The notes beneath the pieces were generated by a model that was given only the letters and a program-made list of their open reading frames with translations, was not told the DNA's origin and ran no database searches. The translations under genes and the position numbers were made by a program. From Eubacteriales bacterium (GTDB taxonomy: Bacteria > Bacillota > Clostridia > Oscillospirales > CAG-272), in contig JAZRCL010000057.1 in assembly GCA_045659745.1 (NCBI GenBank), positions 138-64,137 on the forward strand: a DNA stretch of 64,000 nt, read 5' to 3'. Of the stretch, positions 6,251-63,999 are shown piece by piece (positions within the stretch are counted from its first letter, which is position 1; each line of letters opens with the position of its first letter).

Positions 6251-8743
6251 ATGAAAAAGATTATTGCTACAGTTCTTGCAGCTGTAATGATTCTCTCTAT
6301 CCTTGCTACTCTCGCTGTTATTCCTGCAGCGGCAGCTGATGACAAGGAAGCAGGTGATTGGGCAGTTTACACTGATCCCGGATCATATAAGGACGAGGGA
6401 GGCGAATATCTCTACGATTATAGCGATCCCACCACCTCCGATATGGATATCCCCGGATATGAATATACCGATGAGGGCTTCAAGGTATCCGGAGAGTATA
6501 CAACAGAGGGCGTTAACACAAAGCCCCGTATCCAGATCACCACTAAGGAAAAGCAGAACCTCAAAAAGGGTATTTCTATGACGGTTGAGGTAACAGGATT
6601 CAAGGCAGACCCCGGAAGCGACAGATGGTTCAGCTTCTATATCTGGGATCAGCCCAACCCTGCTCAGGGTAACGTAACCGGCGAATTCGGCCAGGGCTAC
6701 GCTTCTCTTAACAGATGTACCGTTATTCAGAACTTCATTTCTGACCAGGCGTTCTATGACTGGACAGGAACTATGTCTGACCCCGGTTCACCCACCGCTC
6801 CTTGTACATGGTCCTTCCTTTCTGACAAGGCAACAGCGGGAACAGTTCACGCTACTAACCCCGATGAAAACGGTGTATACACACTCACATTGGATCTTAT
6901 TTACGATTCCGCAACAGATTATTATACCCTCTACAATCAGGGTATTCAGGTAACTCCCGTAGAGGTTGTTAACAACTATTTCCACCAGAGATTTGCTGAC
7001 GGATATGCATACGTAGGATTTGGTCTGTTCAACTCCGGCTCGGATTGCACAACTACAGTTACTATCACTGAGTTCAACGGCGAGAAGCCCACAGGTACAG
7101 ATAAGGCTGATCAGGTTTACAATGCAGAGCCTATGGGTCCCATGATCGATACCTCTACACTTGATCCCAGCGCTCCCGCTCTTCTCTTCAATGCAAAGAA
7201 CGAGAAGAAGGAATTCGAAAAGGATGCTTACATGCATACTTGCGACGGAACCTACGTAGCTAACCTTCACGACGGCTCCTTTAGAATTTACCCCGAAAGC
7301 CATACTAAGGTAACATACTTCAGCATGTCACCTGATAACGATTATACTTACGAAGCATCCGATTTCCCCTATGCAGCAGTACTTTTCAGAAACTTCTGTA
7401 ACTGTCAGCAGTTTGAGGGTATGGACTATGCGTGCGAAGGTAAGTACGGTCATACGCTCCAAAGCGTATACTATTGCTCCGGCGCTAACACCTCTCCCGG
7501 AATGAACTGCAGAATTGATCTTGAGCCTCAGGTTGAGGAGTACGAGGATTACTACGGAAACACCTACCAGCTCTTCCTTGTAGACTTCTCCCTCTTCGGT
7601 CCCGACTGGCAGGGAAGAATCAACCTCTTCAGAGTTGACGTACAGTATACTGAATATATGCTCAGCGATGAGGATACAAACTTCTTTGACCTTTGCTATA
7701 TTGCTTTCTTCCAGACAGAAGAGGCAGCATTGAATTATGCTGCAAACTATGCTGAGGAATACGAGCCCTGCGCTCACGACGGTGAGATAATAGTCACTCC
7801 CGAGGTTCCCGCTCAGTGTACCGATACAGGTTGGAGAGAAACCCAGCAGTGCGCTGTTTGTAACCAGTACCTCGTTCCTAAGAAGAGATTGCCCGCTCTC
7901 GGACATAGCTATACTCCCTCTGAATACATAGCTCCTACATGTACAGAGGTTGGTAGAGAAGCAGGTCAGGAATGTACTCGCTGCGGACTTAACAGTTCCA
8001 TGGGTATCGATGCTCTCGGACACGTTGAGATTTATGCATCTGACGACGAAGCACACTGGATCGCTTGTAAGAGAGACGGCTGTGATTATGCAAAGAATCC
8101 CGAGCCTCACACTATTGGTGAAAACGACGTATGTACAGTTTGTGGACATGGTTGTCCTCACGCTAGCACCGAGTGGAGCACCACAACAGGTGCAACCTGT
8201 ACGACTCCCGGCTTGAAGAGCGAGATTTGTAACGACTGCGGAGCTACTGTTAACTCCGAAACCATTCCCGCTCTCGGACATACCGAGGAAGTATTGCCCG
8301 CAGTTGATCCCACATGTACTGACGCGGGTAGAACAGAGGGTAAGCATTGTGCTGTTTGTAAGGCTGTAACAGTTGTTCAGGTTATCATTCCTGCTCTCGA
8401 TCACACTGAGGAAGAGATTCCCGCAGTAGATGCTACATGTAAGGATACAGGTCTCACAGCAGGTAAGAAGTGCACAGTATGTGGCACTGTAACTGTTGAG
8501 CAGACAGAAACTCCTGTGACAGCTCATACATACGACAACGATACAGATGCAGACTGTAACGCTTGCGGTGAGAAGAGAACAATCGCAACTCAGCCTCCTG
8601 TAGACAACACTCCCAATGAGGGTGGTGACAACGCTGGCGGCGAGGAAGAGAAGGGATGCGGCTCCGTTATCGGACTTGGCGCATTCGCAGTTATCGCAAC
8701 CATCGGTCTTGCAGGTGTTGCTTGCTTTAAGAAAAAGGACTAA
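6251..8743 (+). CDS. Secreted cell-surface protein with Cys-rich ALGH repeats and a C-terminal hydrophobic anchor
   Basis: Signal peptide MKKIIATVLAAVMILSILATLAVIPAAAA|DD. Repeated (P)ALGH-x(10-12)-TC(T/K)-x-x-G-x(5)-C-x-x-C modules (aa 507-773). C-terminal GCGS + 22-aa hydrophobic helix + KKKD. Strong Shine-Dalgarno AAAGGAG. Confidence 0.8.
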   Translation: MKKIIATVLAAVMILSILATLAVIPAAAADDKEAGDWAVYTDPGSYKDEGGEYLYDYSDPTTSDMDIPGYEYTDEGFKVSGEYTTEGVNTKPRIQITTKEKQNLKKGISMTVEVTGFKADPGSDRWFSFYIWDQPNPAQGNVTGEFGQGYASLNRCTVIQNFISDQAFYDWTGTMSDPGSPTAPCTWSFLSDKATAGTVHATNPDENGVYTLTLDLIYDSATDYYTLYNQGIQVTPVEVVNNYFHQRFADGYAYVGFGLFNSGSDCTTTVTITEFNGEKPTGTDKADQVYNAEPMGPMIDTSTLDPSAPALLFNAKNEKKEFEKDAYMHTCDGTYVANLHDGSFRIYPESHTKVTYFSMSPDNDYTYEASDFPYAAVLFRNFCNCQQFEGMDYACEGKYGHTLQSVYYCSGANTSPGMNCRIDLEPQVEEYEDYYGNTYQLFLVDFSLFGPDWQGRINLFRVDVQYTEYMLSDEDTNFFDLCYIAFFQTEEAALNYAANYAEEYEPCAHDGEIIVTPEVPAQCTDTGWRETQQCAVCNQYLVPKKRLPALGHSYTPSEYIAPTCTEVGREAGQECTRCGLNSSMGIDALGHVEIYASDDEAHWIACKRDGCDYAKNPEPHTIGENDVCTVCGHGCPHASTEWSTTTGATCTTPGLKSEICNDCGATVNSETIPALGHTEEVLPAVDPTCTDAGRTEGKHCAVCKAVTVVQVIIPALDHTEEEIPAVDATCKDTGLTAGKKCTVCGTVTVEQTETPVTAHTYDNDTDADCNACGEKRTIATQPPVDNTPNEGGDNAGGEEEKGCGSVIGLGAFAVIATIGLAGVACFKKKD

Positions 8744-8773
8744 TTTCTGATTAGTTTAACAAATAAACAAAAA

Positions 8774-8806
8774 TCGGAGGATGCCTCGGCATCCTCCGAC
8801 TTTTTT
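8774..8806. terminator. Bidirectional intrinsic terminator between convergent genes
   Basis: tcggaggatgc(c)-loop-(g)gcatcctccga stem flanked by an A run and TTTTTT. Confidence 0.8.
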
Positions 8807-8812
8807 ATTAAG

Positions 8813-9631
8813 TTAAGAGTTAAGCTCTGTGGGAGCCTCCGTGTGAGCCTCCGTGGGCTTGGTAGATACGGGATATTCCTTGTATCCGTGAGTTCTTATG
8901 TATTCGAGCATTATTTTGTAGCCGTCTGCGTTTGGTGAGCCGCCGTCCTTGTTTGCATACTTCTTGGGGAGATTGCCCGATGAGTCCTTAAGGGCTTCTG
9001 CGGTGTTGATAAAGCGGATATTCAACTCCTGTGCGAGCTCGCATAACCACTTGTTGCAGGTGTCTATTTTTTCATTTGATATCTCACTGTTTCTGTGCTG
9101 ATATTTTGCTGACACTGGAAGTATGGATTGGATTATTATCTTTGTGCCAGGAGAGTTTTCCTTGATCGTGTCTATAAGCTTTTTGTAGTATTCGCAAAAG
9201 GCATTTTTGTCGCAATAGGGAACACCGTTCTCAAGCCCCAAGGTTATTACAAGATACCTTGGCTTTTTTGTTTTAAGCGATTGTGCGAGGAGCATCTCCT
9301 CATCTGTTTCGGGGAGAATTATTGTTGCTTTGTCGATATTGTAATCGAGCTTCAGCGTTCCGTCCTTGCCGGTCCAGACCTGATTTGAGTCAACTCCGTT
9401 TTCCAAAACTCCGCTGCTAACCATATTCTGACTTGTAAAGTCGCCGAGGAATATCAGATTATTTATATAATTCTGACCGTAATCGGGAGTGGATTTCAGA
9501 GTCGCCTCGCTCTCTGAGATATTAAAATCCTTGTCCTTTTTTATCAAGGTGGCGAGACACACCGCAGCGATTATCGCCAGACACAGCGCGGCAAGCAGGG
9601 AGATTATAATTACTTTCGTTGTTTTTTTCAT
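8813..9631 (-). CDS. Membrane-anchored SGNH/GDSL-family hydrolase
   Basis: N-terminal TM helix, block I-like LIFLGDFTS and later ITLGLENG blocks. Size and layout fit SGNH esterases. Identification from motifs only. Confidence 0.6.
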   Translation of the reverse strand: MKKTTKVIIISLLAALCLAIIAAVCLATLIKKDKDFNISESEATLKSTPDYGQNYINNLIFLGDFTSQNMVSSGVLENGVDSNQVWTGKDGTLKLDYNIDKATIILPETDEEMLLAQSLKTKKPRYLVITLGLENGVPYCDKNAFCEYYKKLIDTIKENSPGTKIIIQSILPVSAKYQHRNSEISNEKIDTCNKWLCELAQELNIRFINTAEALKDSSGNLPKKYANKDGGSPNADGYKIMLEYIRTHGYKEYPVSTKPTEAHTEAPTELNS

Positions 9632-9643
9632 TTTATTTCAATC

Positions 9644-10117
9644 CTATTTGTCGTCTGAAAAAAGACTTTTGTATTCAGTCTGCGTCTCGGGCTGCTTTTT
9701 GGATTTTTTAGTGCTTCCGGAATTTTTTGTGTTTTGTGACTTGGCGTTGACTTTTTTCTCACTCTTGCGATTGATAATAAAGGATTTGATAAGACAAGCT
9801 ATCCCATATAATACGGCGAAAATTGCCGTTGAAATAACCGAGAAGGTAAATCCCTTGTGGTAGGGGAGAATGACGCAGAAGAAAAATCCACCCACGTAGC
9901 ATGCCGCGTGGCATACTGCTGCGGGAATCTTGTTCATTAAGTTGCTTTCCTTTATCGCTGTTCCCGTGGACATTATAAAAGCGAACAAAAGCAGAAACAA
10001 AAATTTTCCCGGGTCAAGTCCCGTGTTATTATCGCCAAATAACTGTGCAAATAACAAAAAGACGCCGCTTATTGCGGTATAGTAAACCGCTCCGAGATTT
10101 ATGATTCTTTTAAGCAT
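9644..10117 (-). CDS. Hypothetical integral membrane protein with Lys-rich C-terminal tail
   Basis: Four predicted hydrophobic helices followed by a KSEKKVNAKSQNTKNSGSTKKSKKQ tail. Tightly coupled to the downstream hydrolase gene. Confidence 0.6.
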   Translation of the reverse strand: MLKRIINLGAVYYTAISGVFLLFAQLFGDNNTGLDPGKFLFLLLFAFIMSTGTAIKESNLMNKIPAAVCHAACYVGGFFFCVILPYHKGFTFSVISTAIFAVLYGIACLIKSFIINRKSEKKVNAKSQNTKNSGSTKKSKKQPETQTEYKSLFSDDK

Positions 10118-51587: not shown

Positions 51588-51632
<45 letters not shown>

Positions 51633-51698
51633 AATTTTATCATTTTGATAAAAAATATGATAAAATTTGTCGAATTTCACGATGTTTTGGAAAAACTA

Positions 51699-51793: not shown

Positions 51794-52141
51794 ATGAAGA
51801 AACTTAACAAGAAGGGCTTTACAATCGTAGAGCTTGTAATCGTTATCGCAGTTATCGCAATCCTCGCAGCAGTAATGATTCCTACATTTAGTGGCATAAT
51901 TGAAAAGGCAAATGATTCTGCTCGTCTCCAGCTTGCATCTGCAGCATACAAGGAAGCATATGCGATTGCTATTAGCGATGATGGTGTAATTGACAATACG
52001 GATACAGATATCGCTGCAGGTGATTTCGAATTTGACTTTACATCCGAGGACGATGCTACCGTAACCACATCTAATACTAAGTTTACCAACTATACAGTAA
52101 AAGTAGAAAATGGTGAACTTAAGATAGAAAAGAAGAAATAA
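51794..52141 (+). CDS. Type IV pilin (probable major pilin), prepilin-type N-terminal cleavage/methylation domain
   Basis: MKKLNKKG|FTIVELVIVIAVIAILAAVMIPTF: short basic leader, Gly at -1, Phe at +1, Glu at +5, 20-aa hydrophobic helix. 115 aa. First gene of the operon, followed by a terminator-like hairpin. Confidence 0.85.
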   Translation: MKKLNKKGFTIVELVIVIAVIAILAAVMIPTFSGIIEKANDSARLQLASAAYKEAYAIAISDDGVIDNTDTDIAAGDFEFDFTSEDDATVTTSNTKFTNYTVKVENGELKIEKKK

Positions 52142-52178
52142 TTAAATATTACTAATAATTAATTTTATTAAGACGCAA

Positions 52179-52224
52179 GCACTCTGCACTCCTTGCGGGT
52201 GTAGAGTGCTTTGGTCGTTTTTTT
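52179..52224 (+). terminator. Intrinsic terminator/attenuator between the major pilin and downstream pilus genes
   Basis: gcactctgcac-(9)-gtgtagagtgc (11 bp with one G-U) followed by tttggtcgTTTTTTT. Confidence 0.7.
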
Positions 52225-52242
52225 AGAAAAGGCTGGCAAAAT

Positions 52243-52731
52243 ATGGGCAGAAAACACAGAATTACTAATGCGTCAAAGCAAAATATTGCTAAACGCGGCA
52301 AGGGTGGATTCACACTTGCCGAGCTTTGTATTGTTTTGGCAATCGTTGTGATCTCATCTGCTATGATAGTTTCGTTCGCGACGTCTATGAAGCAGTTTGC
52401 CACCTCAAGCCAAGAAGAATACGACTTTTTAGAGGACTGCGGCGCCGTCAGGGACGGGCTGTGCCGATGGATTGCTGAAAAGGACGCTCCCAATGCGGAT
52501 TTCTCGGATATAGTCGGAAAAGATTTTGCCGTGTCAGGCGGAACTCTTGATCTTGGCAATAATACGAAATTTGAAAACCTGGACACGATCGGAAAGATTA
52601 CCTTTGAGATTAACGAGGACAAAAATCTGATCAAATGCGAAATTACCCGCGTTGGCTCCGACAGTGCCGGCAAGAGCCTTGTTTTCGCTCTGCGCTGCGC
52701 AAATTCAGACGGAGGTGGCGCGAATGAATAA
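52243..52731 (+). CDS. Pilin-like protein (minor pilin) with long leader peptide
   Basis: ...AKRGKGG|FTLAELCIVLAIVVISSAMIV: Gly at -1, Phe at +1, Glu at +5. The leader is about 22 aa. Confidence 0.75.
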   Translation: MGRKHRITNASKQNIAKRGKGGFTLAELCIVLAIVVISSAMIVSFATSMKQFATSSQEEYDFLEDCGAVRDGLCRWIAEKDAPNADFSDIVGKDFAVSGGTLDLGNNTKFENLDTIGKITFEINEDKNLIKCEITRVGSDSAGKSLVFALRCANSDGGGANE

Positions 52732-53125
52732 AACAAAAAGAAATAGCGGCTTTTCCATAATGGAAACGGTTATCGCTCTGGCAATAATCGTTATCGTAAC
52801 AGTTGCGGCGCTCTCCGTGGTTATGGCATCCATCTCCGCAAGAGTCAAGCAAGCCAATTACAGCGAGGCGCAGGACTTCGCGCACAACATCCTTGAGTGC
52901 TTTAAGGCGGCAGATGATACGGCTAAGTTTGAAGATTACGTGAAATTTGCCGAGGGCGTGGAATTGAGCCAATACGCCGAAAATGATGGTTATAATTATG
53001 ACGCGGAAAATAAATTTTCTGCAAAGATAATGTACTATAACAATTTTAACGAGATATTTATCAGTATTGAAGATACAAAGGGTGACGAAATAATTTCGTT
53101 CTCATACGTAAAGGGGGCGAAATAA
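52724..53125 (+). CDS. Pilin-like protein (minor pilin)
   Basis: MNKTKRNSG|FSIMETVIALAIIVIVTVAAL. ATG 52724 overlaps the upstream stop region and has a GGAGG Shine-Dalgarno. Confidence 0.75.
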   Translation: MNKTKRNSGFSIMETVIALAIIVIVTVAALSVVMASISARVKQANYSEAQDFAHNILECFKAADDTAKFEDYVKFAEGVELSQYAENDGYNYDAENKFSAKIMYYNNFNEIFISIEDTKGDEIISFSYVKGAK

Positions 53126-53484
53126 TGAAGATACTTAAAAGCAAAAAGGGAATAGCGCTTGAAAATACGCTGCTCTTTATGATGATCATATTCTCGCTCT
53201 GCTTTTTGATCGCGTCGTTTGCCCTGATAGGTCATTATCAAGGTAAAATAGAGAATATCAAGATAACTCAAAGGATCGAGCTTGATCAGATTGGAGAGGA
53301 ATATCTTGCAAGTGTCAAGGACCCTTCAGTAGCTTTTGACAACGAAAGCTACGGCGGCTACACTTGTGATGTAAATGCAGAGAACAGGACTCTGACTGTC
53401 AAGAATGGAGAAACAGTAGTACTCTATGTAAAAGCGAACAGCTACGGCGACCCGATAATCTGGCGTTATTCACAGCCGGAATAA
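53125..53484 (+). CDS. Atypical pilin-like / ComGG-like small membrane-anchored protein
   Basis: MKILKSKKG|IALENTLLFMMIIFSLCFLIASFALI: hydrophobic helix after KKG, but Glu falls at +4 rather than +5. Confidence 0.45.
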   Translation: MKILKSKKGIALENTLLFMMIIFSLCFLIASFALIGHYQGKIENIKITQRIELDQIGEEYLASVKDPSVAFDNESYGGYTCDVNAENRTLTVKNGETVVLYVKANSYGDPIIWRYSQPE

Positions 53485-53513
53485 TCTAACATTTTGCGAT
53501 ATGGAGAAAAACA

Positions 53514-54746
53514 ATGGCAAAATCTAACTATATGACAACAATAGCGATCGATACCAATCGTTCTGCCATTCATTTTTACTCAATGGTTGGCAACGATAAG
53601 AACTCGATCACTCATAATATAAAAAGCTATGCGGGTGTAAAGCTCGACGAGAACTTTTTTGAAAGGTTCAAGGATGCCGTAAAAGACTTTGCGGCAAACA
53701 CTCCGTCCGAGTCTATACGTAAGGTCACGGTAATTCTGCCCGACTCCGCAGTGCTTACCGATACTATAAAGATACCCACGGTCAAGGGCTCGGCACAGAC
53801 TCAGAAGATGCTTGACACAACTCTTGGCGGTCTTTACCGCAACTATAAGGATCTGCATATCATCGCTCAGATGGCGGATCAGAACAAGCAGTATTCCACT
53901 ATCGGTATAGCGGCAGTGCAGAACAGCATAGTTTCGTCCGTCTATTCGGCTTGCTCGGAGAATAAGCTTTTGGTTGACACGCTTTCCTTTGCATCAGCTT
54001 CGTCTGTTGCGGGAGCTATGTCATTCAACCCCAAGCTCAAGAATGCGTCGTACGTATTCTTGGATATAAAGGATATCTATTCAAGATTTGTATTCGTGGT
54101 GGACGGCAAGGTTATGGGATTCTATACGCTTCCGTTCGGACTTGAATTTTTGAGAAAGCCCCGAGTTGTGAGAGAGGATATTTTGTTTGACCACTCATAT
54201 GGCGAGCTTGTAGTCCTTAACGCAAGGGAAAAGGCAAAGTCCAAAAAGCTTACCGTTATGGCGTTTGGTGAGGCATCCTCCAGATCTTCTCAGGAGGAAT
54301 ACTCTGCAGACGACGAGATAGACGCGGATGAAGAGCTTGTATCCGAGGAGGCAGTTGTTGAGGAGGTCACAGTTAATAACAACGGACAAACCCAAAAGCT
54401 GTTCGTGAGAAAGGGACCCCGCAATCTTCCCAAGTTTATGCTTCGTGAGATTCCCGAAACACAAGAGGGAATTGCTTATGAAAACTTCCGAGTTTTCGTT
54501 AAGTGGGCGTTGACTCTTATACATAGCAACGAAAAGATAACCGAGCTTGGCAAGCCCCAGTTCGTGTGTGTAAATCTTCCCGCGGATCTTTCATACGTTA
54601 TAGATATGACAAATCAGGAGTCGGGCGAGAACGGAATTACGTTTAACCGCCTGTCTGCTTCGAGTGATAATCGCATCATCTCGGAAAATCTCGAATTATA
54701 CGGCGGCTTGTTCCCGAATCAGATAAACTCGGCGAATAAGCTTTGA
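53514..54746 (+). CDS. Possible PilM-like pilus assembly protein with acidic insertion
   Basis: Starts TTIAIDTNRSAIHFY (actin-like phosphate-1-like strand), and its operon position is typical of PilM. Contains an acidic stretch SQEEYSADDEIDADEELVSEEAVVEE. Weak assignment. Confidence 0.4.
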   Translation: MAKSNYMTTIAIDTNRSAIHFYSMVGNDKNSITHNIKSYAGVKLDENFFERFKDAVKDFAANTPSESIRKVTVILPDSAVLTDTIKIPTVKGSAQTQKMLDTTLGGLYRNYKDLHIIAQMADQNKQYSTIGIAAVQNSIVSSVYSACSENKLLVDTLSFASASSVAGAMSFNPKLKNASYVFLDIKDIYSRFVFVVDGKVMGFYTLPFGLEFLRKPRVVREDILFDHSYGELVVLNAREKAKSKKLTVMAFGEASSRSSQEEYSADDEIDADEELVSEEAVVEEVTVNNNGQTQKLFVRKGPRNLPKFMLREIPETQEGIAYENFRVFVKWALTLIHSNEKITELGKPQFVCVNLPADLSYVIDMTNQESGENGITFNRLSASSDNRIISENLELYGGLFPNQINSANKL

Positions 54747-54756
54747 GGATTGTAGT

Positions 54757-55545
54757 ATGGATGAATTTTACCTTGCAGTAGCTTATATTCTTGCGGCAAT
54801 TATAGGCTTGTGCGTGGGCAGCTTTCTGAACGTAGTTATATACCGTCTGCCCAACAAAATGAGTCTTGTAAAGCCCAATTCGCATTGTCCCGCTTGCAAA
54901 TATGAGCTTCGCTGGTATGACAATATCCCCGTGCTTTCTTATTTGATTCTTGGCGGTAAATGCAGAAAATGTAAGGCGCGTATATCCTTCAGATATGCGG
55001 CGGTCGAGCTTGCAAACGCGGCTCTGTGGGTGCTTTGCGTTTTGTTCTTCTGGCAAAAGAGCATAGTGCTCGCTTGTATTTACGCGCTTGTATGTTCAAT
55101 TTTTATATGTATATTCTTTATTGATCTTGAGCATAAGATCATATTTGACCGTTTTCAGATAATGCTGCTCGTGCTTTCGTTAGCAAGCATATTCTTTGAT
55201 AAGGACTACGGTTGGCTGTCGCACGTGATTGGTGGCGTTGCGGGCTTTGCAGTCTTTTTCCTTGTCGCTTGGGTATTTGAAAAGGTATCCAAGAGGGAGG
55301 GGCTTGGCGGCGGCGACGTTAAGCTTGCCTGTGTTGCAGGACTTTTGCTTGGATGGGAGCGTCTGCTTCTGTCGCTTATTATAGCAACTGTTCCCGCCGC
55401 GATAATAATGCTTATCGCGTCAAGAGGCAAGGAGGGGGAGGACAGAGAATTTCCCTTTGCGCCGTTCTTGATCTGCGGTTTTAGTGTTGCAATGTTTTTC
55501 GGAACACAGATACTGAATTGGTATCTGTCGCTTCTTGGATTTTGA
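54757..55545 (+). CDS. pilD: Prepilin peptidase (A24 family)
   Basis: GSFLNVVIYRLP, CPACKYEL...CRKCKA zinc-binding pairs, GLGGGDVKL catalytic Asp motif, second Asp-containing FAPFL region. Confidence 0.92.
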   Translation: MDEFYLAVAYILAAIIGLCVGSFLNVVIYRLPNKMSLVKPNSHCPACKYELRWYDNIPVLSYLILGGKCRKCKARISFRYAAVELANAALWVLCVLFFWQKSIVLACIYALVCSIFICIFFIDLEHKIIFDRFQIMLLVLSLASIFFDKDYGWLSHVIGGVAGFAVFFLVAWVFEKVSKREGLGGGDVKLACVAGLLLGWERLLLSLIIATVPAAIIMLIASRGKEGEDREFPFAPFLICGFSVAMFFGTQILNWYLSLLGF

Positions 55546-55566
55546 TAGAAAGTGAGGTGAGCTTTT

Positions 55567-56778
55567 ATGCCTACATATAAATACGTAGCGGTAAATTTGC
55601 AAAAGAAAAAATACAAGGGTATTTTTATCGCTGAGGATGAAAAAGACCTCGCGGTGCAGCTCACAAAACAAAATTTATATTTGGTTTCCGCCTCTGTATA
55701 CAAGGGAGGCACTCCGTCTGCATTTTTCACGCTTGGCACAGGAAAGGTCAAGCTGAGTGAGCTTACCACGTTTTGCAGACAGTTCGCTATTATGATATCC
55801 ACGGGTATTACGCTGCTTGACTGTATCGATAGCCTGAAGCGTCAGCCCTATTCCGCATATTTTAAGTCTGTGCTTCAGGTAGTCAGTGAGGACATCAAGG
55901 GCGGAGCTATGCTGTCCGAGGCGTTTGATAAGCACAAAAAGGTATTTCCCGATTTTTTCTGCAGCATGGTGCACGTCGGAGAAGCCAGTGGAAAGCTTGA
56001 TAAGGTTTTCTTGTCTCTCGCGGATTATTACGAGTCGGACGCGGCAATCAAGAGAAAGGTTAGATCCGCGCTCGCATATCCGTCTATGCTCGCGCTTATG
56101 ACGGTTGCCATCGTAGTTTTGATGCTTGCATTCGTCGTTCCCACATTCCGCGAATCGCTCTCGCAGCTCGACGTTGAGATCACGGGCTTGACTAAAGCGG
56201 TTTACGACATTTCGGATTTCATTTTGAATTATTGGCGAATCATCGTTATCGGAATAATTCTCATCGGCGGCGCGATTTTCCTCTTCACCCGAACAGCAAA
56301 GGGAAGACGGGTAATGGACGTATTAAAGATCAAAACTCCTATTATAGGACGCATCCAGATCAACCTTATAACAGCCCGCTTTGCGCGAGCATTCAGTATT
56401 TTGCTTTCGAGCGGAATGGATCTCGCTACTGCGCTTGATACAACGTCCATTATTCTTGGCAACAGCTACGTTAAGGAACGCTTTGACGAAGCAGCAGACG
56501 ACGTCCGTGAGGGCATCACGCTGACAAACGCGTTTCAAAAGCAAAATCTGTTTCCGCAAATGCTCTTGCAGATGCTTGCGGTAGGAGAACAGACGGCTTC
56601 CTTGGAAGAGGTGCTTGTCCGTTCGTGCGCATTCTTTGACGATCAGGTCGAATCCTCTCTCAATTCGCTGACCTCCAAGATTCAGCCCGCAATGCTTTTG
56701 ATCATGGGTCTTGTCGTGGGAACGCTGTTTATGGCGGTCTACTCGCCTATGCTTGCCATTATGAGTACCCTTGCTTGA
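55567..56778 (+). CDS. pilC: Type IV pilus platform protein (GspF/PilC family)
   Basis: Two T2SSF repeats (LTTFCRQFAIMISTGITLLDCI ; ARFARAFSILLSSGMDLATAL). Three TM segments. 403 aa. Confidence 0.92.
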   Translation: MPTYKYVAVNLQKKKYKGIFIAEDEKDLAVQLTKQNLYLVSASVYKGGTPSAFFTLGTGKVKLSELTTFCRQFAIMISTGITLLDCIDSLKRQPYSAYFKSVLQVVSEDIKGGAMLSEAFDKHKKVFPDFFCSMVHVGEASGKLDKVFLSLADYYESDAAIKRKVRSALAYPSMLALMTVAIVVLMLAFVVPTFRESLSQLDVEITGLTKAVYDISDFILNYWRIIVIGIILIGGAIFLFTRTAKGRRVMDVLKIKTPIIGRIQINLITARFARAFSILLSSGMDLATALDTTSIILGNSYVKERFDEAADDVREGITLTNAFQKQNLFPQMLLQMLAVGEQTASLEEVLVRSCAFFDDQVESSLNSLTSKIQPAMLLIMGLVVGTLFMAVYSPMLAIMSTLA

Positions 56779-56794
56779 TTTCGGAGGTTGACTG

Positions 56795-58483
56795 ATGAAT
56801 ATAAATAGAGACTTACTACAGTTTTATATTTACAAAAAAATAATAAAGAAAAAGCAAGCAGAAAAGATTCTTGAGGATTGCGAACGACTTAAGGTTTCGG
56901 TCCGCGACTATATGCTTACTAAGGAGTATGCGACGGAGGTCAGGGAATTGCCCGTTTTGGGAGGATATTATTGCCTTCCTCACGTGGAAATAGACATGCT
57001 TGATATCGACAAGTCACTTTTCGAGCTGTTCAGCTTCGAATTTATGAAGCGCTACAAAGTCATTCCCGTGAGCATGAGCCCCGACGGCACGCTTCTTATC
57101 GCAACGGGTAATCCGCTTGACTGCTCGGCTATGTCGGCGATTTCCTCGCAGATCGTATGTCCTATGGACTACGTTCTCGTCCCACCCGGACAGATAGACC
57201 GCTATATTGACTCAATAGCGGTGGTAATGTCCACGTCCGCGGCACTCGACGACCTTAATACCGAGGGCGAGGTTGAGATGTTCTCGACCAAGAAGGCCCT
57301 CGCAGAAGAGAATATCGCCGAGAATGACGTCGTCAACAACCCGTCGGTTCGTCTGGTTGACTCAATTATCCGAGAAGCCGTACCGTACCGCGCGAGTGAT
57401 ATACATATCGAGCCCTTTGAGAAGGTCGTTAAGGTGCGCTACCGTATAGACGGCGACCTTCAGGAAAGAGCAGAGTTCCCGATAAACTCTTATTCCGCGA
57501 TTTGTGCGCGAATTAAAATAATGGCGGGACTTGATATTGCCGAGCGCAGAATACCTCAGGACGGACGAATTGATATGATCATCGGCGGCAAGGAGTTTGA
57601 CTTCCGTGTTTCCTCGCTTCCCACGATGTTCGGAGAAAAATTCGTTATCCGAGTACTCGATAAAACGTCCTTCCGCTTCACACGTGACGACCTTGGCTTT
57701 ACCGAGGACGAAAACGTGTATATAAACAAAATGCTCTCCAAGCCCCACGGAATAATCCTTCTGACAGGACCCACGGGATGCGGAAAGTCCACGACCTTGT
57801 ACTCCTTCTTAAAGGAGGTTAACACCTCAGCGGTGAATATCGTTACCGTTGAAGACCCCGTTGAGTATGTTATGCAGGGCATAAATCAGACGCAGGTAAA
57901 CGCAAAGGCTAATATGACCTTTGCGACCGCGCTTCGTTCCATACTCCGTCAGGACCCCGATATCATAATGATCGGTGAGATGCGAGACGAGGAGACCGCG
58001 GAGATAGCCGTAAGAGCGGCTATTACTGGACACCTTGTGTTCAGTACGCTGCATACCAACGATGCCACGGGCGCGATCACGCGTCTTGAGGATATGGGTA
58101 TCGCAGATTACCTCGTTGCAGACGCGCTTGTGGGCGTTATTGCCCAGCGTCTTGTTAAAAGACTTTGCCCCGAGTGCAGAAGAAGAAGTAAAACCACCCC
58201 CAGCGAGATGCGGATGCTCGGCATAGACGAGCCCATCAGCATTTATCGCCCGCAGGGATGTCAGTTCTGCAACCATACGGGATATAAGGGCAGAATAGCA
58301 GTGCACGAGATTATGTATATGAATGAAAATATGCGTAACGCCGTCGTGCGCGAAAAGAATCTTGAGGTGCTTCGCGACCTCGCAAGACAAAACGGAATGG
58401 TCACTCTTTGGAGCTCCTGCCGTAACCTTGTAATAAACGGCGTGACGAGTATCCAACAGCTTATGACCTTGAATATGGAGTGA
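56795..58483 (+). CDS. pilB: Type IV pilus assembly ATPase (GspE/PilB family)
   Basis: Walker A GPTGCGKST, Asp box, Walker B IIMIGEMRD, His box, tetracysteine CPEC...CQFC motif. N-terminal GSPII_E-like domain. Confidence 0.93.
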   Translation: MNINRDLLQFYIYKKIIKKKQAEKILEDCERLKVSVRDYMLTKEYATEVRELPVLGGYYCLPHVEIDMLDIDKSLFELFSFEFMKRYKVIPVSMSPDGTLLIATGNPLDCSAMSAISSQIVCPMDYVLVPPGQIDRYIDSIAVVMSTSAALDDLNTEGEVEMFSTKKALAEENIAENDVVNNPSVRLVDSIIREAVPYRASDIHIEPFEKVVKVRYRIDGDLQERAEFPINSYSAICARIKIMAGLDIAERRIPQDGRIDMIIGGKEFDFRVSSLPTMFGEKFVIRVLDKTSFRFTRDDLGFTEDENVYINKMLSKPHGIILLTGPTGCGKSTTLYSFLKEVNTSAVNIVTVEDPVEYVMQGINQTQVNAKANMTFATALRSILRQDPDIIMIGEMRDEETAEIAVRAAITGHLVFSTLHTNDATGAITRLEDMGIADYLVADALVGVIAQRLVKRLCPECRRRSKTTPSEMRMLGIDEPISIYRPQGCQFCNHTGYKGRIAVHEIMYMNENMRNAVVREKNLEVLRDLARQNGMVTLWSSCRNLVINGVTSIQQLMTLNME

Positions 58484-58525: not shown

Positions 58526-61500
58526 ATGAAAAAGAGAAACATTAAAGCCTTTACTGTCGTAGAGCTTGTAATCGTTATCGCAGTTATTGCTATACTTGCG
58601 GCGGTTATGATCCCTACCTTCAGCGGCTTGATAAGAAAGGCGAATAAATCCGCGGACGAAGCGGAGATAACCTCGCTCAATACACAGCTTGCTATCTGGG
58701 ATGGCGATATTACGACCGAAGCGGATCTTTATGCGGTAATCGCAGAAACCTACGGCGAAGAAACCGCTAAAACCTTTGCGCCAAGAAGCGCAAAGCACGG
58801 TCTGCATTATTGGTATGACGTAGCTAAAAATCGTGTGATCCTTAGCAAATATGAGGATCTTGACGCGACCCCCGTTAATACTGTAAATGCAAATTCTGGT
58901 GTGACAATGCTTTCCAACGTAACACCACTTGCAGCAGGAGAAGAGAAGGCTCCTTTTGCACCTAACAGCCTTCGTACCATCACCAAGGGCGAAAGACAGT
59001 ATTTCTTTATAGATAAGAGCGGTAGTGCGGTCGCTGAATTCTTTGACTTGATCGATACAATCAGCGAAAACAATTATAGTGACATTGAGGCGGCACTTGA
59101 AAGCCTTAAAGGTGAGATTGTTAATGCAATCAAAACAAGACTTGCGTCCGTCGCAATCCTTAATGGCAACGGCTTGTTTACAAAGGTTGAGAAGCCTTCC
59201 GCGATCTATATTCCTGTGAATAAGGATACCGAGAATGTCATCGCCTTGGGAACAGCAATCTATAAAGACGGTGATCTTGTTGATCGTAACGCGGTAGATT
59301 TTTCCGAGATAAAGCGCATTGATTTGCCTAACGGATATAAGGTTCTTACTGCAGGTCTGACAGGCTTTAGAGGTGCCGATGCAACTCCTATGTTGGAGAA
59401 CACGACCGAACTCCACGTTAACGCCAAGGAAAGCGACCTCGGAACAATTTTCGAGGCATATTCTACTGATTGCGTTATCGTTCTTCCTAATGGTTCGAGA
59501 TACATTATAGAGGGAACGAGTATCTATAAGCTTCCCAAGGGTGATACACCTATCACTGATGATCTTAAAGCCGATAGTGTTCCCGATGTTAAGATTGAAT
59601 ACACGGACGGCAATGAAAATGTTGGAGCAGATACCGGTTATTTCTATAACGGCACACTCTATATCGCATACGACATAGAGAATGGCGCACAGCTTTCCTT
59701 GGCTGACGGCGTTGCTTCAAGTATGGTTAATTGGACAGTAAGTGATAATGCTCCTATTAGCATTGATGAAACTGGTAAGATTACAGTGGTAGGCGCCCCC
59801 GATCCTCTTAATGTTACGGCTACTGTAACTGCCACGTCTAAATATAACAACGAAAAGACGGATAGCATAAATGTAGTGCTTGTATTCCCGACAACTGTAG
59901 ATTGGTCTTTAGAAACAATTGGAGATAAAACAGCAGATTCTAATGTTATCAATGAACCGATTAAACTTAGCATTAGCGATGTCGATAAGCTTTCATTTGA
60001 AATCAAGGCAACTGGAACTGTTGGATATACATATAACAGTTATGTCAAAATGGCTGGCGCCGAGAGTGTTCAGTTTATTTTGGGCGACGGAAACCTGCTT
60101 ACAAAGGATGGCGAAAAATTGGTAGCTCATCCAGGAAATATTACGGAAGAGAATAACACCCAGACACTTAACGTCATCTATAAAGTTGGCGAGCAGACTT
60201 ATATCACAGCAACTTATGATATCATAGTTTCTGACGATACAAATTGCCCTATTAGCGTAAATGCTATTACTAATTCTCTCAATATGGGAGATAAATATCT
60301 GTTCCGCGTTGGTAACAGCAATGCATTCAACTTGAACAAATTGTTTAACGGCACGACAGACAAGAAAGTTAAAATTGAAATATATGATGTAGCGCTGACA
60401 GATAATGACGGAGAAGAAAATCTCATTGCCACTTCTGGAAATTTCTATGCAAAGATTAACGACATTGCGGCCAACACTAAAGAATGCTCAGATGGCAATT
60501 GGAATGAAATTAAAGTGCAGTTTTTTGGTACCGGCGTAGCAATTATTCGTTTTACTGCAAACGGCAAGACTGAGGAATTGCATATTGAAGTTGTTGACGG
60601 TTACAACATTACCTCGGCAGGGGAGTTGAAAACTAATAAGAACAATATTTTGTTGAATGATATTGATATTAGTGATTACAGTAATAACTATATTTCTTTC
60701 TCGGGTAATACCACCAACCATGTAGTTTTGTACGGTAATGGTTTTAAGTTTAATATTGAGGCAGGAAGAAATAATAACTTTGGCGTAATTACTCTTACAA
60801 ACGCTGATATTGACAACACAAGAATTATCGGATCAATATATACTGAGTACGGCGACTCGTGGGATAACGGGAACACCCCATACTATGCATCAGCAGTATA
60901 TGTTACTGCGAATAGCCGAATTTCCAATTCCTACATTTTTGGCTGTCGTGCAAATGTCAGAGTAGATAATTTAATTTCTAAGGGAACTCTCGAACTTGTT
61001 GATACCGTTTTGGATTGCGGAAGATTTGCAAACCTCGATGTTGCCGGTAATGCTGTATTGGAAGGTGTAACAACCGTAAATGAACCGCGTCCGGATAATA
61101 AAAATGTAGCGGGTTTTAGTGTTGTGATTCCCCAAGAAGGTGGATCTTCAACAATAGAAATTAAAGGTAAGGGCTTAACACAATACAATTGGATGACCAG
61201 CAGCGATAGCTCTAAGCTTCCTAATTTTACTGGTAAAAATGTATTATTCAATGCTATGTTTGATACAGAGTATGCTGCATTCCAGCACAAACATGGCACT
61301 GAAACCTATGTCAATATGGGTATTATCTCTATGTCTAGTGAGACAGACGGAAGTAATATTAAATACGAATCTCAATATTATACTGAAAAGACTGCAACGC
61401 TTACTGGTTTTTCGGGCTATGTTGTATCTCTTGGAGAAAAGTACAGCTTGTCCTCAAATGATTTGACATACCGCGAGGACACTTATTCTTGGGATCCTTC

Positions 61501-63052
61501 GAAGCAGAGCGCATCGCTACCTACATTTACATGGACAGCCGGATATGAGGATTATAAGCATGAAATTTCTTTTGATAGCGGAAGTTCTGTAACATTTGAT
61601 CCTAAAGTATTGATTGCTGAAAAGCATAAGCAGGGTTTGGAAGTTACAATAAAGCTCGAAAATGATTCCTCTTACACTGGTGGTGGTAAAACTTTCACCG
61701 AGGGAGGCACTTATACATTTGAATATACTGTAACAGACCCGTATGTTTATAATTTAGATGGAACGCTTGCAGAAGCGAAAATTTACACCTATAAGCTTAC
61801 CGTTGAAGTAGAGGTTAGAGAGACAACCATCAAAGAACCCGAATTTACCTTTAACGGAGTAAAAGCAACTATCGTTGAGGGTACAGATGGAAAGTTCTAT
61901 GTTACGCTTCCTGCTGGAACAGCTAATACAAAAACAACTACTGCTGGTGGAAAGACTATCACATACCCGATTGCTGAGGGAAAAACTCAGGCTGTTTCAC
62001 TTGGTAATAATAAGTATTGGTATTTCCCTTATTATTCGATCGTAACTATTACAAATTACACAGATGCTTTCGGAAATAACACAATCTTTAATAGTTCCAC
62101 CACAAGCAAGGGGCCTGTTCCCGAGTCTTATTCAGGCGATTTGTATTGGGGTAAGAGCGACGCGGAAGGTAACTACTCAGATTACGGTGGCTATGGTATG
62201 AAACGTAATACTAGCAACGACAGTAAGTATCAAGTCGAAAGAGAAACTACTGTTCAATTCTCCTTTACTGCCGGAAATAACACAACATACTACTACTACA
62301 TTCATTATGCTTTCGATACTACAGATGATGCTCCTAGCTCTGGTGGAGGCTCCGACAATTGTATTGCCGCAGGCACTATGATTACTCTGGCTGATGGCTC
62401 TAAGAAGGCTGTCGAGGATCTTCGTAAGGGTGATATGGTAATGTCCTTCGACCACCTTACTGGCGAGATCACATACAAGGATGTAATCATCGTTGCAAGA
62501 ACGTATTCAGAAAGCTACTACAAGAACACGTTCGTGTTCGATGACGGAACAGAGCTTGTAACGATCAATGAGCACGGTATCTACGACCTTGACCTCAACA
62601 AGTACGTAAATATCGATCACATTAACTATACCGATTATCTTGGACATAGTTTTGTATCTGTAGATGCCGAGGGTAATCTTGGTGTGAAAAAGCTTGTTGA
62701 CGTTAAGACCGTTTGCGGCGGTGGTTATAAGTACGACATCGTAACTAATGGAACTCTTAATTACGTTGCAGAGGATACTCTTTCTGTAACACACGTTCTT
62801 GTTGATGTTATCAACTCCTTCGACTTTGGCTCAGATCTCAAGTACGATGCAGAAAAGATGCTGTCTGATATTGAGAAGTACGGTCTGTATGACTATGCAG
62901 AATGGGAAGAGTACTGCGATATTTCTGTATTTGATCAGTACAATATTCCCGTTATGAAGGTGGGTATTTCTAAGGGACTTTACACCAAGGAATACATTAT
63001 CGGCCTTATTAACACGTATGTTCTTAATGACAGCGCTCAGATTATCGACTAA
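58526..63052 (+). CDS. Giant (1,508 aa) modular pilin-like adhesin with C-terminal Hint autoprocessing domain
   Basis: MKKRNIKA|FTVVELVIVIAVIAILAAVMIPTF prepilin signal and helix, near-identical to the major pilin. Ig-like segments (aa about 384-453, about 1020-1097). Beta-helix-like repeats (aa about 700-860). Hint domain from Cys1279 (CIAAGTMITLADGSKKAVEDLRKGDMV...). AGGAGG Shine-Dalgarno. Terminator follows. Confidence 0.85.
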   Translation: MKKRNIKAFTVVELVIVIAVIAILAAVMIPTFSGLIRKANKSADEAEITSLNTQLAIWDGDITTEADLYAVIAETYGEETAKTFAPRSAKHGLHYWYDVAKNRVILSKYEDLDATPVNTVNANSGVTMLSNVTPLAAGEEKAPFAPNSLRTITKGERQYFFIDKSGSAVAEFFDLIDTISENNYSDIEAALESLKGEIVNAIKTRLASVAILNGNGLFTKVEKPSAIYIPVNKDTENVIALGTAIYKDGDLVDRNAVDFSEIKRIDLPNGYKVLTAGLTGFRGADATPMLENTTELHVNAKESDLGTIFEAYSTDCVIVLPNGSRYIIEGTSIYKLPKGDTPITDDLKADSVPDVKIEYTDGNENVGADTGYFYNGTLYIAYDIENGAQLSLADGVASSMVNWTVSDNAPISIDETGKITVVGAPDPLNVTATVTATSKYNNEKTDSINVVLVFPTTVDWSLETIGDKTADSNVINEPIKLSISDVDKLSFEIKATGTVGYTYNSYVKMAGAESVQFILGDGNLLTKDGEKLVAHPGNITEENNTQTLNVIYKVGEQTYITATYDIIVSDDTNCPISVNAITNSLNMGDKYLFRVGNSNAFNLNKLFNGTTDKKVKIEIYDVALTDNDGEENLIATSGNFYAKINDIAANTKECSDGNWNEIKVQFFGTGVAIIRFTANGKTEELHIEVVDGYNITSAGELKTNKNNILLNDIDISDYSNNYISFSGNTTNHVVLYGNGFKFNIEAGRNNNFGVITLTNADIDNTRIIGSIYTEYGDSWDNGNTPYYASAVYVTANSRISNSYIFGCRANVRVDNLISKGTLELVDTVLDCGRFANLDVAGNAVLEGVTTVNEPRPDNKNVAGFSVVIPQEGGSSTIEIKGKGLTQYNWMTSSDSSKLPNFTGKNVLFNAMFDTEYAAFQHKHGTETYVNMGIISMSSETDGSNIKYESQYYTEKTATLTGFSGYVVSLGEKYSLSSNDLTYREDTYSWDPSKQSASLPTFTWTAGYEDYKHEISFDSGSSVTFDPKVLIAEKHKQGLEVTIKLENDSSYTGGGKTFTEGGTYTFEYTVTDPYVYNLDGTLAEAKIYTYKLTVEVEVRETTIKEPEFTFNGVKATIVEGTDGKFYVTLPAGTANTKTTTAGGKTITYPIAEGKTQAVSLGNNKYWYFPYYSIVTITNYTDAFGNNTIFNSSTTSKGPVPESYSGDLYWGKSDAEGNYSDYGGYGMKRNTSNDSKYQVERETTVQFSFTAGNNTTYYYYIHYAFDTTDDAPSSGGGSDNCIAAGTMITLADGSKKAVEDLRKGDMVMSFDHLTGEITYKDVIIVARTYSESYYKNTFVFDDGTELVTINEHGIYDLDLNKYVNIDHINYTDYLGHSFVSVDAEGNLGVKKLVDVKTVCGGGYKYDIVTNGTLNYVAEDTLSVTHVLVDVINSFDFGSDLKYDAEKMLSDIEKYGLYDYAEWEEYCDISVFDQYNIPVMKVGISKGLYTKEYIIGLINTYVLNDSAQIID

Positions 63053-63063
63053 CAACTTTTTAT

Positions 63064-63092
63064 CACCCACCCTTTCGGGGGTGGGTGGTTTA
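63064..63092 (+). terminator. Hairpin terminator after the giant pilin gene
   Basis: cacccaccc-tttcgg-gggtgggtg followed by gTTTaT. Confidence 0.55.
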
Positions 63093-63117: not shown

Positions 63118-63999
63118 ATGGCTATAAAATATACATCTACAAAACCCGAAAAAGAAAAGCCCCAAAAGGCACCTAAAGCACCCAAAACCGAAAAGCCTGC
63201 GAAAAAAGACAATTTGGTTAAGGTGAAGATGAGCAAGCCCACAAAGGCTGCTAAAGCGCCTAAGGCACAGAAACCCCAAAAGGTAAAGAATAGTACGCCC
63301 GCGAAAGCGCCTAAGGCAGGAGCGTCTGTCACGTTTAAAGGTGGTAAAACTAAAAAGACGTCAAATACCGTGAATGGTGATGCGCCCAAAAAAGCATTTG
63401 CTCCTAAAATTGCTATAGTGATAGGCGTTATCTTGGTGCTTGCTATCGTAATGGTTGCTGTATTTTTGATTATGCCTGCAGTTAAGCAAAATGGCGAGGC
63501 GATAAAAGAAATAAGTGTTTCGCAATTGCCTGACAAGACTGTTTATTTGACCGGTGAAGAAGCAAATTACACTGGCTTGCGTATTCAGGTGACGAAAAAA
63601 AATGGTGAAACCTATACCGTTCGCGCTCATGAGTGCGAAATTACCGGATTTGATAGCGCCAAGGAAGGATATATACGTATTCTTGTAAAATATGAGGGCT
63701 TTGAGGTTGGGTTTAACCTCAAGGTTCAGGAGCCACCACGCCCTACTCCATCACTTAAGAGCATTAGTTTGAAAACTTTACCTAAAACAGAATATAAGGT
63801 AGGAGAGAGGCTCGATACCATAGGTGGTGTTATTCTTTGCGAATATAATGATGGTTCACAACACACTGTTTCTCTTGTAAATGGCCATGTCTCTGGCTTC
63901 AAGAATGTCGATGGCCCGGGAACATATATGTTGACCGTAAAGTACAAGGAAAACGGCGTTTTGGCAACCTGCACCTACGAAATCACGGTAACAGAATAA
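63118..63999 (+). CDS. Single-pass membrane protein: Lys/Pro/Ala-rich cytoplasmic N-terminus and extracellular Ig-like (Big_3-like) repeats
   Basis: KPEKEKPQKAPKAPKTEKPAKK... (aa 8-95), TM IAIVIGVILVLAIVMVAVFLIMP, then two repeats of the LP.KT.Y..GE....GL.I......G pattern. The TAA stop at 63997-63999 is inside the window. Confidence 0.7.
   Translation: MAIKYTSTKPEKEKPQKAPKAPKTEKPAKKDNLVKVKMSKPTKAAKAPKAQKPQKVKNSTPAKAPKAGASVTFKGGKTKKTSNTVNGDAPKKAFAPKIAIVIGVILVLAIVMVAVFLIMPAVKQNGEAIKEISVSQLPDKTVYLTGEEANYTGLRIQVTKKNGETYTVRAHECEITGFDSAKEGYIRILVKYEGFEVGFNLKVQEPPRPTPSLKSISLKTLPKTEYKVGERLDTIGGVILCEYNDGSQHTVSLVNGHVSGFKNVDGPGTYMLTVKYKENGVLATCTYEITVTE

Follow-up and report, generated by a model that had tools for sequence, protein, structure and literature searches.

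The window analyzed here, a 64,000-nucleotide stretch of Eubacteriales bacterium DNA (GCA_045659745.1, contig JAZRCL010000057.1), carries at 58526..63052 on the forward strand a gene that we interpret, from the open reading frame (ORF) list and its translation, as encoding a 1508-aa modular type IV pilin. The C-terminal 230 residues of this protein probably form a two-part, Hog-like autoprocessing module, in which a Hint domain (residues 1279–1423) is followed by a co-conserved helical tail and acts through a thioester to cleave the polypeptide. From one end to the other, the protein consists of a leader, an alpha1-N helix, a passenger of about 1240 aa, a linker, the Hint domain, and the tail. 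Hint chemistry underlies protein splicing and Hedgehog lipidation, and bacterial Hint domains are known mainly as inteins, bacterial intein-like (BIL) domains, and toxin-release modules. The module sets itself apart from these by comprising about 2,000 clusters at 50% identity that are almost wholly unannotated, by the permanent pairing of Hint domain and tail, and by capping huge surface proteins.

Fold and conservation of the Hint domain and its tail

We modeled the last 250 aa of the protein with AlphaFold2 (AF2) on the basis of 25 homologs. The model reached a predicted local distance difference test score (pLDDT) of 90.7 and a predicted template modeling score (pTM) of 0.86. The Hint domain (62360..62794, forward strand), which ends in LNYVAEDTLSVTH, is all-beta, with strands throughout and pLDDT values above 90. 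Foldseek comparison of the model with the PDB returned 65 matches at E ≤ 1e-3, and all 50 that were listed are Hint-fold proteins. The best-placed structures are BIL2 of Tetrahymena (6y75, 8.8e-10), the NpuDnaB intein (5e-9), the SspDnaB mini-intein (about 1e-8), Hedgehog (1at0 and 6tyy, about 1e-8), and a BIL domain of Clostridium thermocellum (2lwy, 2e-7). The Hint alignments cover about 150 columns with a probability of 1.0 and target-normalized TM-scores of 0.72–0.84. Searching the PDB with a profile built from 25 family sequences gave BIL2 at E 1e-7 across the whole Hint domain, from block A to block G, and Hedgehog at E 1e-3. According to this alignment, the E-H-G motif of the family lies opposite the block-B His of BIL2, and YKYDIVT..LNYVAEDTLSV lies opposite intein blocks F and G. 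A preliminary description of the window, made from the letters alone, had recognized a Hint fold at residues 1279–1423; its reading of the 62360–63049 translation is identical to ours, and the model, the structural matches, and the BIL2 profile match, all well beyond chance, confirm the fold that it proposed.

The predicted nucleophile, Cys1279 (codon 62360..62362, forward strand), occupies position +1 of Hint block A. It is a cysteine in all 161 relatives compared, as expected if the residue first singled out as the nucleophile has that role, and it is followed in the family by the motif [IL]-x-x-G-T-[LM]-I-T-[LM]-A-D-G. The flexible linker SSGGGSDN described ahead of it is indeed found at 62336..62359 on the forward strand and ends in Asn1278. 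Positions −6 to −1 are Ser/Gly-rich in the family as well, position −1 being S, T, G, or N in 141 of 161 relatives. His1350 (codon 62573..62575, forward strand), within the EHG motif, is equivalent to the catalytic His of block B; it is 99% conserved and aligns with BIL2. Besides His1350, three residues are at least 95% conserved (H1310, D1354, and H1374), the conservation figures being drawn from the 150 best-scoring representatives. The Hint positions conserved at 90% or more are C1279, G1283, T1284, D1290, G1291, H1310, G1313, H1350, D1354, Y1360, N1367, G1373, H1374, F1376, and N1412.

The 85-aa tail (residues 1424–1508; 62795..63049, forward strand) is modeled as five helices with pLDDT values of 91–98 when the Hint domain is present, and of 73 when modeled alone; it appears to pack on the Hint domain. 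The tail is as conserved as its partner, with an information content of 2.64 versus 2.57 bits per column and a mean pairwise identity of 48% versus 47%. Its recurrent motifs are N-x-F, Y-D-x-x-x-M-x-x-D-I-E-K-Y-G-L-x-x-Y, and K-G-x-x-T, and the most conserved 10-residue block of the whole module, IEKYGLYDYA, lies within it. At least 90% conservation is reached at N1430, F1432, D1448, I1449, Y1452, G1453, L1454, Y1457, K1483, G1484, and T1487. Homologs at 35–83% identity span both the Hint domain and the tail, and those at 35–40% identity still cover 86–95% of the module. On the strength of this equal conservation, this joint coverage, and the drop in pLDDT of the isolated tail, we regard the Hint domain and the tail as one module. 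The preliminary description had noted that the tail sits where Hedgehog carries its sterol-recognition region. This positional likeness extends to the family: the tail is terminal in 154 of 171 relatives and is conserved to the same degree as the Hint domain.

The tail is uniformly acidic, aromatic-rich, and not hydrophobic (median isoelectric point [pI] 4.1, median net charge −9, about 20% aromatic, grand average of hydropathy [GRAVY] −0.2). Scanned alone or within the module, it matched no Pfam or NCBIfam family, the module giving only sub-threshold Hint matches. Nor did its model find a similar fold in the PDB or BFVD, where nothing scored below E = 2.6. A homolog search with the tail alone returned 11 short proteins. 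Of these, the two inspected proved to be disrupted genes and no free-standing tails, the cause being a frameshift deletion in one case and an in-frame stop in the other; this search is therefore uninformative as to whether the tail occurs independently.

Distribution of the module and its carriers

An exhaustive profile search among representatives of 50%-identity clusters retrieved 8,165 proteins at E ≤ 1e-3, of which 1,991 also passed E ≤ 1e-30. We analyzed the position of the module in 171 relatives. It ends no more than 10 residues from the C-terminus in 154 of them, and a few carry 40–115 further low-complexity residues. Internal copies were found in only two of the 171 proteins, and both retain the tail. 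These two very large proteins, P0042 (modules at 336–555 and 1784–1994) and P0070 (327–547 and 1355–1574), each harbor two internal modules inserted between beta-helix-like repeats, which resume past the tail. Cleavage at each Cys would cut either protein into three pieces.

Using two conserved peptide patterns, we identified 292 matching stretches in species-representative genomes and kept 80 loci from 77 assemblies. Nearly all of these assemblies are labeled as gut Bacillota. The carriers include Oscillospiraceae, Christensenellaceae, Faecousia, Acutalibacteraceae, and Pumilibacter muris, together with lineages of Bacilli labeled Acholeplasmatales, Mollicutes, or Erysipelotrichaceae, and their hosts include ruminants, rabbits, birds, and humans. 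The module closest to that of the window, at 81% identity, belongs to an uncultured Clostridia metagenome-assembled genome, which makes a related gut bacterium the probable source of the window. Members of the family mostly have no or weak Pfam annotation, and the few names given in the source records are "hypothetical protein."

The passengers and N-termini joined to the module are very diverse, the latter comprising Sec signals, SipW-type signals (TFAWFTD), transmembrane segments with G-[FY]-S-[ST]-W-[IV]-I, and prepilin signals. Several genomes hold multiple copies of the module on different passengers, sometimes in tandem or adjacent genes. Such diversity and this distribution of copies are what a module for general sorting or processing typically shows, as opposed to a cargo domain. 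The preliminary description had presented the module as a feature of a pilin, a view that does not extend to the family: among the long relatives, prepilin N-termini account for only about 3%, and Sec-type, SipW-type, or other signals for the remainder. Judged from these sequences, the module serves large secreted or fiber-associated proteins of gut Bacillota in general as a C-terminal device and is not pilin-specific.

In locus L011 (6950–9676), module proteins with the SipW signal TFAWFTD adjoin TasA/camelysin-like genes and a gene for a SipW-like signal peptidase I, an arrangement that places the Hint-tail module also on proteins of a second fiber system. In many module proteins (e.g., P0060, P0063, and P0090), the sequence begins with a transmembrane segment whose last residues are G-[FY]-S-[ST]-W-[IV]-I. 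The same motif is present in ORFs of about 215–230 aa located just upstream, in L016 (1969–2616), L029 (781–1428), L031 (2745–3425), and L034 (2122–2820). This suggests that the segment is an uncharacterized sorting signal or marks a class of fiber subunits, possibly related to SipW. We also clustered the ORFs flanking 78 related loci to see whether a gene for an immunity protein or a partner recurs. Downstream, no gene family reaches beyond six of these loci. The largest upstream family, present in 10 of the 78, consists of small proteins with the passenger's own N-terminal signal motif.

The association with pilins nevertheless recurs. P0028 is a full-length ortholog of the 1508-aa protein (38% identity) with the same architecture and the same operon layout as in the window, and P0118 is a second one (26% identity), again with the same architecture, located away from any pilus operon. 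The module evolves more slowly than the passenger. P0009, a 416-aa protein encoded inside a complete pilus operon, consists of a pilin part, about 130 aa, and the module; its N-terminal stretch of about 50 residues is also found in two adjoining pilin paralogs (L001). A frameshifted copy of the module adjoins another pilus operon, and pilin-like N-termini of the form G/[VI]TL[VI]A were found at two further loci.

Predicted chemistry and competing explanations

Sec-dependent translocation is the established route for prepilins. Its pilin features suggest that the 1508-aa protein would enter the membrane as a prepilin, that its long C-terminal part would be translocated, and that its pilin helix would join the pilus encoded by the adjacent operon. 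Outside the cell the Hint domain would fold, and Cys1279, aided by His1350, would attack the carbonyl of Asn1278 in an N-to-S acyl shift that yields a thioester, roles to which the near-universal conservation of these two residues points. As the module has no terminal Asn and is followed by no C-extein or downstream nucleophile, the only outcome would be scission between Asn1278 and Cys1279, freeing a Hint-tail fragment of 26 kDa. We infer this cleavage, along with the fate of the thioester, from sequence. Hydrolysis needs no extra domain, and the tail is conserved equally; it therefore most likely governs the resolution of the thioester, either by recruiting an acceptor nucleophile, as in Hedgehog, or by gating hydrolysis.

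The first of these two roles would amount to a Hog-like transfer, which we put forward tentatively. One particular nucleophile would be captured by the tail, for instance an amine or hydroxyl of the cell envelope, a lipid, or a group on a host or dietary target, and through the thioester it would become covalently linked to the C-terminal end of the pilus or surface protein. Speculatively, the acidic and aromatic-rich surface of the tail would be a better match for a cationic amine or a sugar than for a sterol.

The arrangement of the module resembles that of Hedgehog proteins. At the end of a secreted protein, both have a cargo, a Gly/Ser-rich junction, a Cys, a Hint domain, and a C-terminal extension of 70–85 aa, and both lack a terminal Asn, which leaves the N-terminal junction as the sole place for cleavage. 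Structure and profile searches both place BIL2, from the BUBL locus of Tetrahymena thermophila, closest to the Hint domain of the module. Through its thioester, BIL2 attaches the ubiquitin-like domain that precedes it to lysine residues of other proteins (PMC8616854). BIL domains also occur in secreted bacterial proteins, those of Clostridia included (2lwy). Unlike the module, which has neither, BIL2 and the A-type BIL domains keep a C-terminal His-Asn and a downstream domain, and a conserved helical tail has been reported for no BIL class (PMC2362128).

Several observations weigh against a Hog-like autoprocessing module. All Pfam models of the Hint clan score below their cut-offs on the window protein (Hint 26.7 versus 29.7, PT-HINT 21.2 versus 27.7, Hint_2 20.0 versus 28.4, and Vint 18.1 versus 27), and relatives are likewise sub-threshold or without a match. 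Every model falling just short of its curated threshold, the Hint domain of this family is mostly unannotated. Of the check proposed in the preliminary description, which combined Hint models with structural superposition, the structural and profile half thus gave strong matches and the Pfam half did not reach gathering scores. Its internal Thr/His block likewise stands in part: the His is conserved, but the Thr is not, and the spacing in the window protein is T-x-x-x-H instead of T-x-x-H. The module, which unlike Hedgehog is bacterial, also showed no conserved Asp in its linear region 41–50, where Hedgehog Asp46/Asp303 would be expected, as judged by sequence position only. In Hedgehog, Asp46 is the general base that activates the hydroxyl of the acceptor. 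The 150 representatives behind the conservation figures are a sample that favors well-conserved members. Finally, the tail has no detectable similarity to the Hedgehog sterol-recognition region, the Hedgehog profile matches spanning the Hint part only, and its acidic, soluble character is unlike that of a lipid-binding segment. Since it resembles neither that region nor any known fold, its role in choosing an acceptor is an analogy.

The main alternative concerns the last step. The module could be a simple self-removing propeptide, in which the thioester is just hydrolyzed, the tail aids folding, export, or timing, and the mature pilin ends in the free carboxylate of Asn1278. Many bacterial Hint domains, BIL and PT-HINT domains among them, only cleave, and two of our results fit such a propeptide: no conserved partner gene that could supply an acceptor adjoins the family members in the 78 loci, and the pI and GRAVY of the tail are not those of a lipid-like segment. 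Hydrolysis, however, requires only the Hint domain, yet the tail is equally conserved, holds the most conserved block of the module, and is kept alongside the Hint domain even where, rarely, the module lies internally. Hydrolysis alone is a serious but less favored possibility.

A Hint domain that has lost catalysis and been reused as a structural or binding domain, so that no cleavage occurs, is considerably less probable. The low scores of the Hint-clan models and the missing block-B Thr could be read in this way, as could weak matches to the AXH domain of Ataxin-1, which is related to Hint and is not an autoprocessing domain. The invariant Cys at +1, the block-B His retained in 99% of relatives, and the small residue at −1 after a flexible linker are in contrast the signature of an active N-terminal junction.

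What follows the Hint domain in polymorphic toxins is a variable toxin that comes with its own immunity gene. The preliminary description had mentioned, with some doubt, that the module could be the PT-HINT release device of such a system, which would make the 85-aa tail a toxin directed against competing bacteria. The weak Pfam match to PT-HINT (E 3.7e-4) points this way, and PT-HINT domains share with the module a location near the C-terminus of very large secreted bacterial proteins. One PDB sequence match, 8w20, likewise has a Hint domain close to the C-terminal end of a large protein; it was deposited under the name intein C-terminal splicing domain-containing protein. Here, however, the region following Hint is conserved throughout the family instead of polymorphic, and it matches no toxin family or fold. 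As there is no C-terminal Asn, cleavage at Cys +1 would leave the tail joined to the Hint domain. No immunity-like neighbor recurs: downstream gene families stop at six of the 78 loci, and in the window a hairpin and then the gene of a Big_3 membrane protein lie 3′ of the stop codon. The earlier doubt is thereby strengthened, and we consider a toxin very improbable.

Least probable of all is a true intein or an A-type BIL domain that splices or cleaves at both ends, for although the fold and blocks A, B, and F are like those of mini-inteins, the position of the terminal His-Asn of BIL2 reads V-T in the window protein, whose Hint domain ends in LSVTH (variable across the family), and over 90% of members have no C-extein and end after the tail, so that splicing is as unlikely as first suggested.

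The Hint superfamily, BIL domains, PT-HINT domains, and modular pilins are already known. Our literature search, which covered Hint or BIL domains on pilins, bacterial adduct-recognition regions, Hint domains of Clostridia surface proteins, and modular pilins, returned no description of the module. In particular, we found none of this Hint subfamily, of its obligatory helical tail, which gives a two-part Hog-like architecture in bacteria, of its scale in gut Bacillota, or of its fusion to a type IV pilin. The module looks like a general and undescribed way of processing or attaching a protein C-terminus. An acceptor-selecting tail would mean a new covalent attachment or modification of bacterial surface proteins and pili, and would offer a concrete prokaryotic model for the origin of the Hedgehog autoprocessing domain. 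Should transfer occur, thousands of surface proteins of gut Bacillota would possess a self-contained, sortase-independent anchoring or "harpoon" chemistry, and the module would be a possible prokaryotic relative of the Hedgehog domain. If it only cleaves, it is still a widespread maturation step for pilus-borne or fiber-borne proteins that genome annotation should capture. These prospects concern Hint and Hedgehog evolution, the biogenesis of Gram-positive surface proteins, and type IV pili.

The pilin gene, its operon, and the flanking genes

The N-terminus of the 1508-aa protein carries a class III (prepilin) signal, MKKRNIKA/F, followed by a hydrophobic alpha1-N helix with Glu5 (FTVVELVIVIAVIAILAAVMIPTFSGLIRKAN; 58526..58645, forward strand). 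It reads MKKRNIKA/FTVVELVIVIAVIAILAAVMIPTF, with the junction KA/FTVVE (the slash marks the junction). In a PDB search, alpha1-N helices of solved type IV pilins match it with E-values down to 3e-8, residue 9 of the query corresponding to residue 1 of the mature pilins. The pilin and ComGC models of NCBIfam match at E of about 1e-6, and Pfam N_methyl scores 19.9 bits, slightly under its cut-off of 21.2. The class III signal, the helix matches, and the pilus operon directly upstream mark the protein as a modular pilin of the kind represented by Streptococcus sanguinis PilB and PilC (PMC8179133), and confirm the pilin label that it first received. The modular pilins described there carry binding or enzymatic modules, and the main and supplementary text of that survey, as far as consulted, makes no mention of a Hint or intein module (PMC8179133). 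A self-cleaving C-terminal module on a pilin thus appears to be undescribed. As neither a Pfam scan nor a PDB search recognized a domain in the passenger of about 1240 aa, the label "adhesin," also given in the preliminary description, stays an assumption.

The first 40 or so residues of the protein are nearly identical to those of a 115-aa pilin encoded by the first pilin gene of the operon (51794–52141, forward strand). The leader and alpha1-N helix common to 51794–52141 and 58526–58645 read FT[IV]VELVIVIAVIAILAAVMIPTFSG. The DNA differences between the two are largely synonymous, which argues for selection keeping the same polymerization helix rather than for a recent copy.

The type IV pilus operon upstream of the large pilin gene extends over 51794..58483 on the forward strand, as delimited by Pfam scans and N-terminal sequences. 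Pilin-like genes, recognized by their N-termini, occupy 51794–53484. They are followed by a 410-aa ORF (53514–54746) with no Pfam or NCBIfam match and by three genes assigned by Pfam that lie immediately upstream of the 1508-aa pilin gene and encode a prepilin peptidase (Peptidase_A24, 54757–55545), PilC/T2SSF (55567–56778), and PilB/T2SSE (56795–58483). The 410-aa ORF may encode a divergent PilM/N/O-like assembly component. At the equivalent position, locus L089 has a similar, likewise unannotated gene of 384 aa. The same locus contains, between PilB and the large pilin gene, an extra 874-aa gene (7320–9944) with a weak Pfam match to GAP1-N2, which the window does not have.

Downstream of the pilin gene, a GC-rich hairpin (CACCCACCC-loop-GGGTGGGTG) followed by GTTTAT was read at 63064..63087 on the forward strand and is probably the terminator of the pilus operon. 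A consensus terminator scan did not report it because of its short T run. The product of the next gene (63118..63999, forward strand) is a membrane protein that crosses the membrane once, by a single transmembrane helix; its N-terminus is rich in Lys and Pro, and it has two Big_3 domains (Pfam E 4.7e-18). A Big_3 gene and then a TMEM164-family gene (PF14808) also lie 3′ of the orthologs P0028 and P0118, the corresponding regions being 14741–16411 in L089 and 14703–16167 in L088. NCBIfam describes a family related to PF14808 as a TMEM164-related integral membrane acyltransferase. The window ends at the exact point where the TMEM164-family gene would begin. The trio of large pilin, Big_3, and TMEM164 genes is kept at 26% protein identity, even away from a pilus operon. 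We considered a link between the Big_3 and TMEM164-family genes and the Hint chemistry and dropped it, as both follow the orthologous pilins only and not the module family generally. Upstream of the first pilin gene (51794), the intergenic region contains a run of about 38 consecutive A at about 51600–51640. This tract may make the pilus operon phase-variable through strand slippage, or it may be an assembly artifact.

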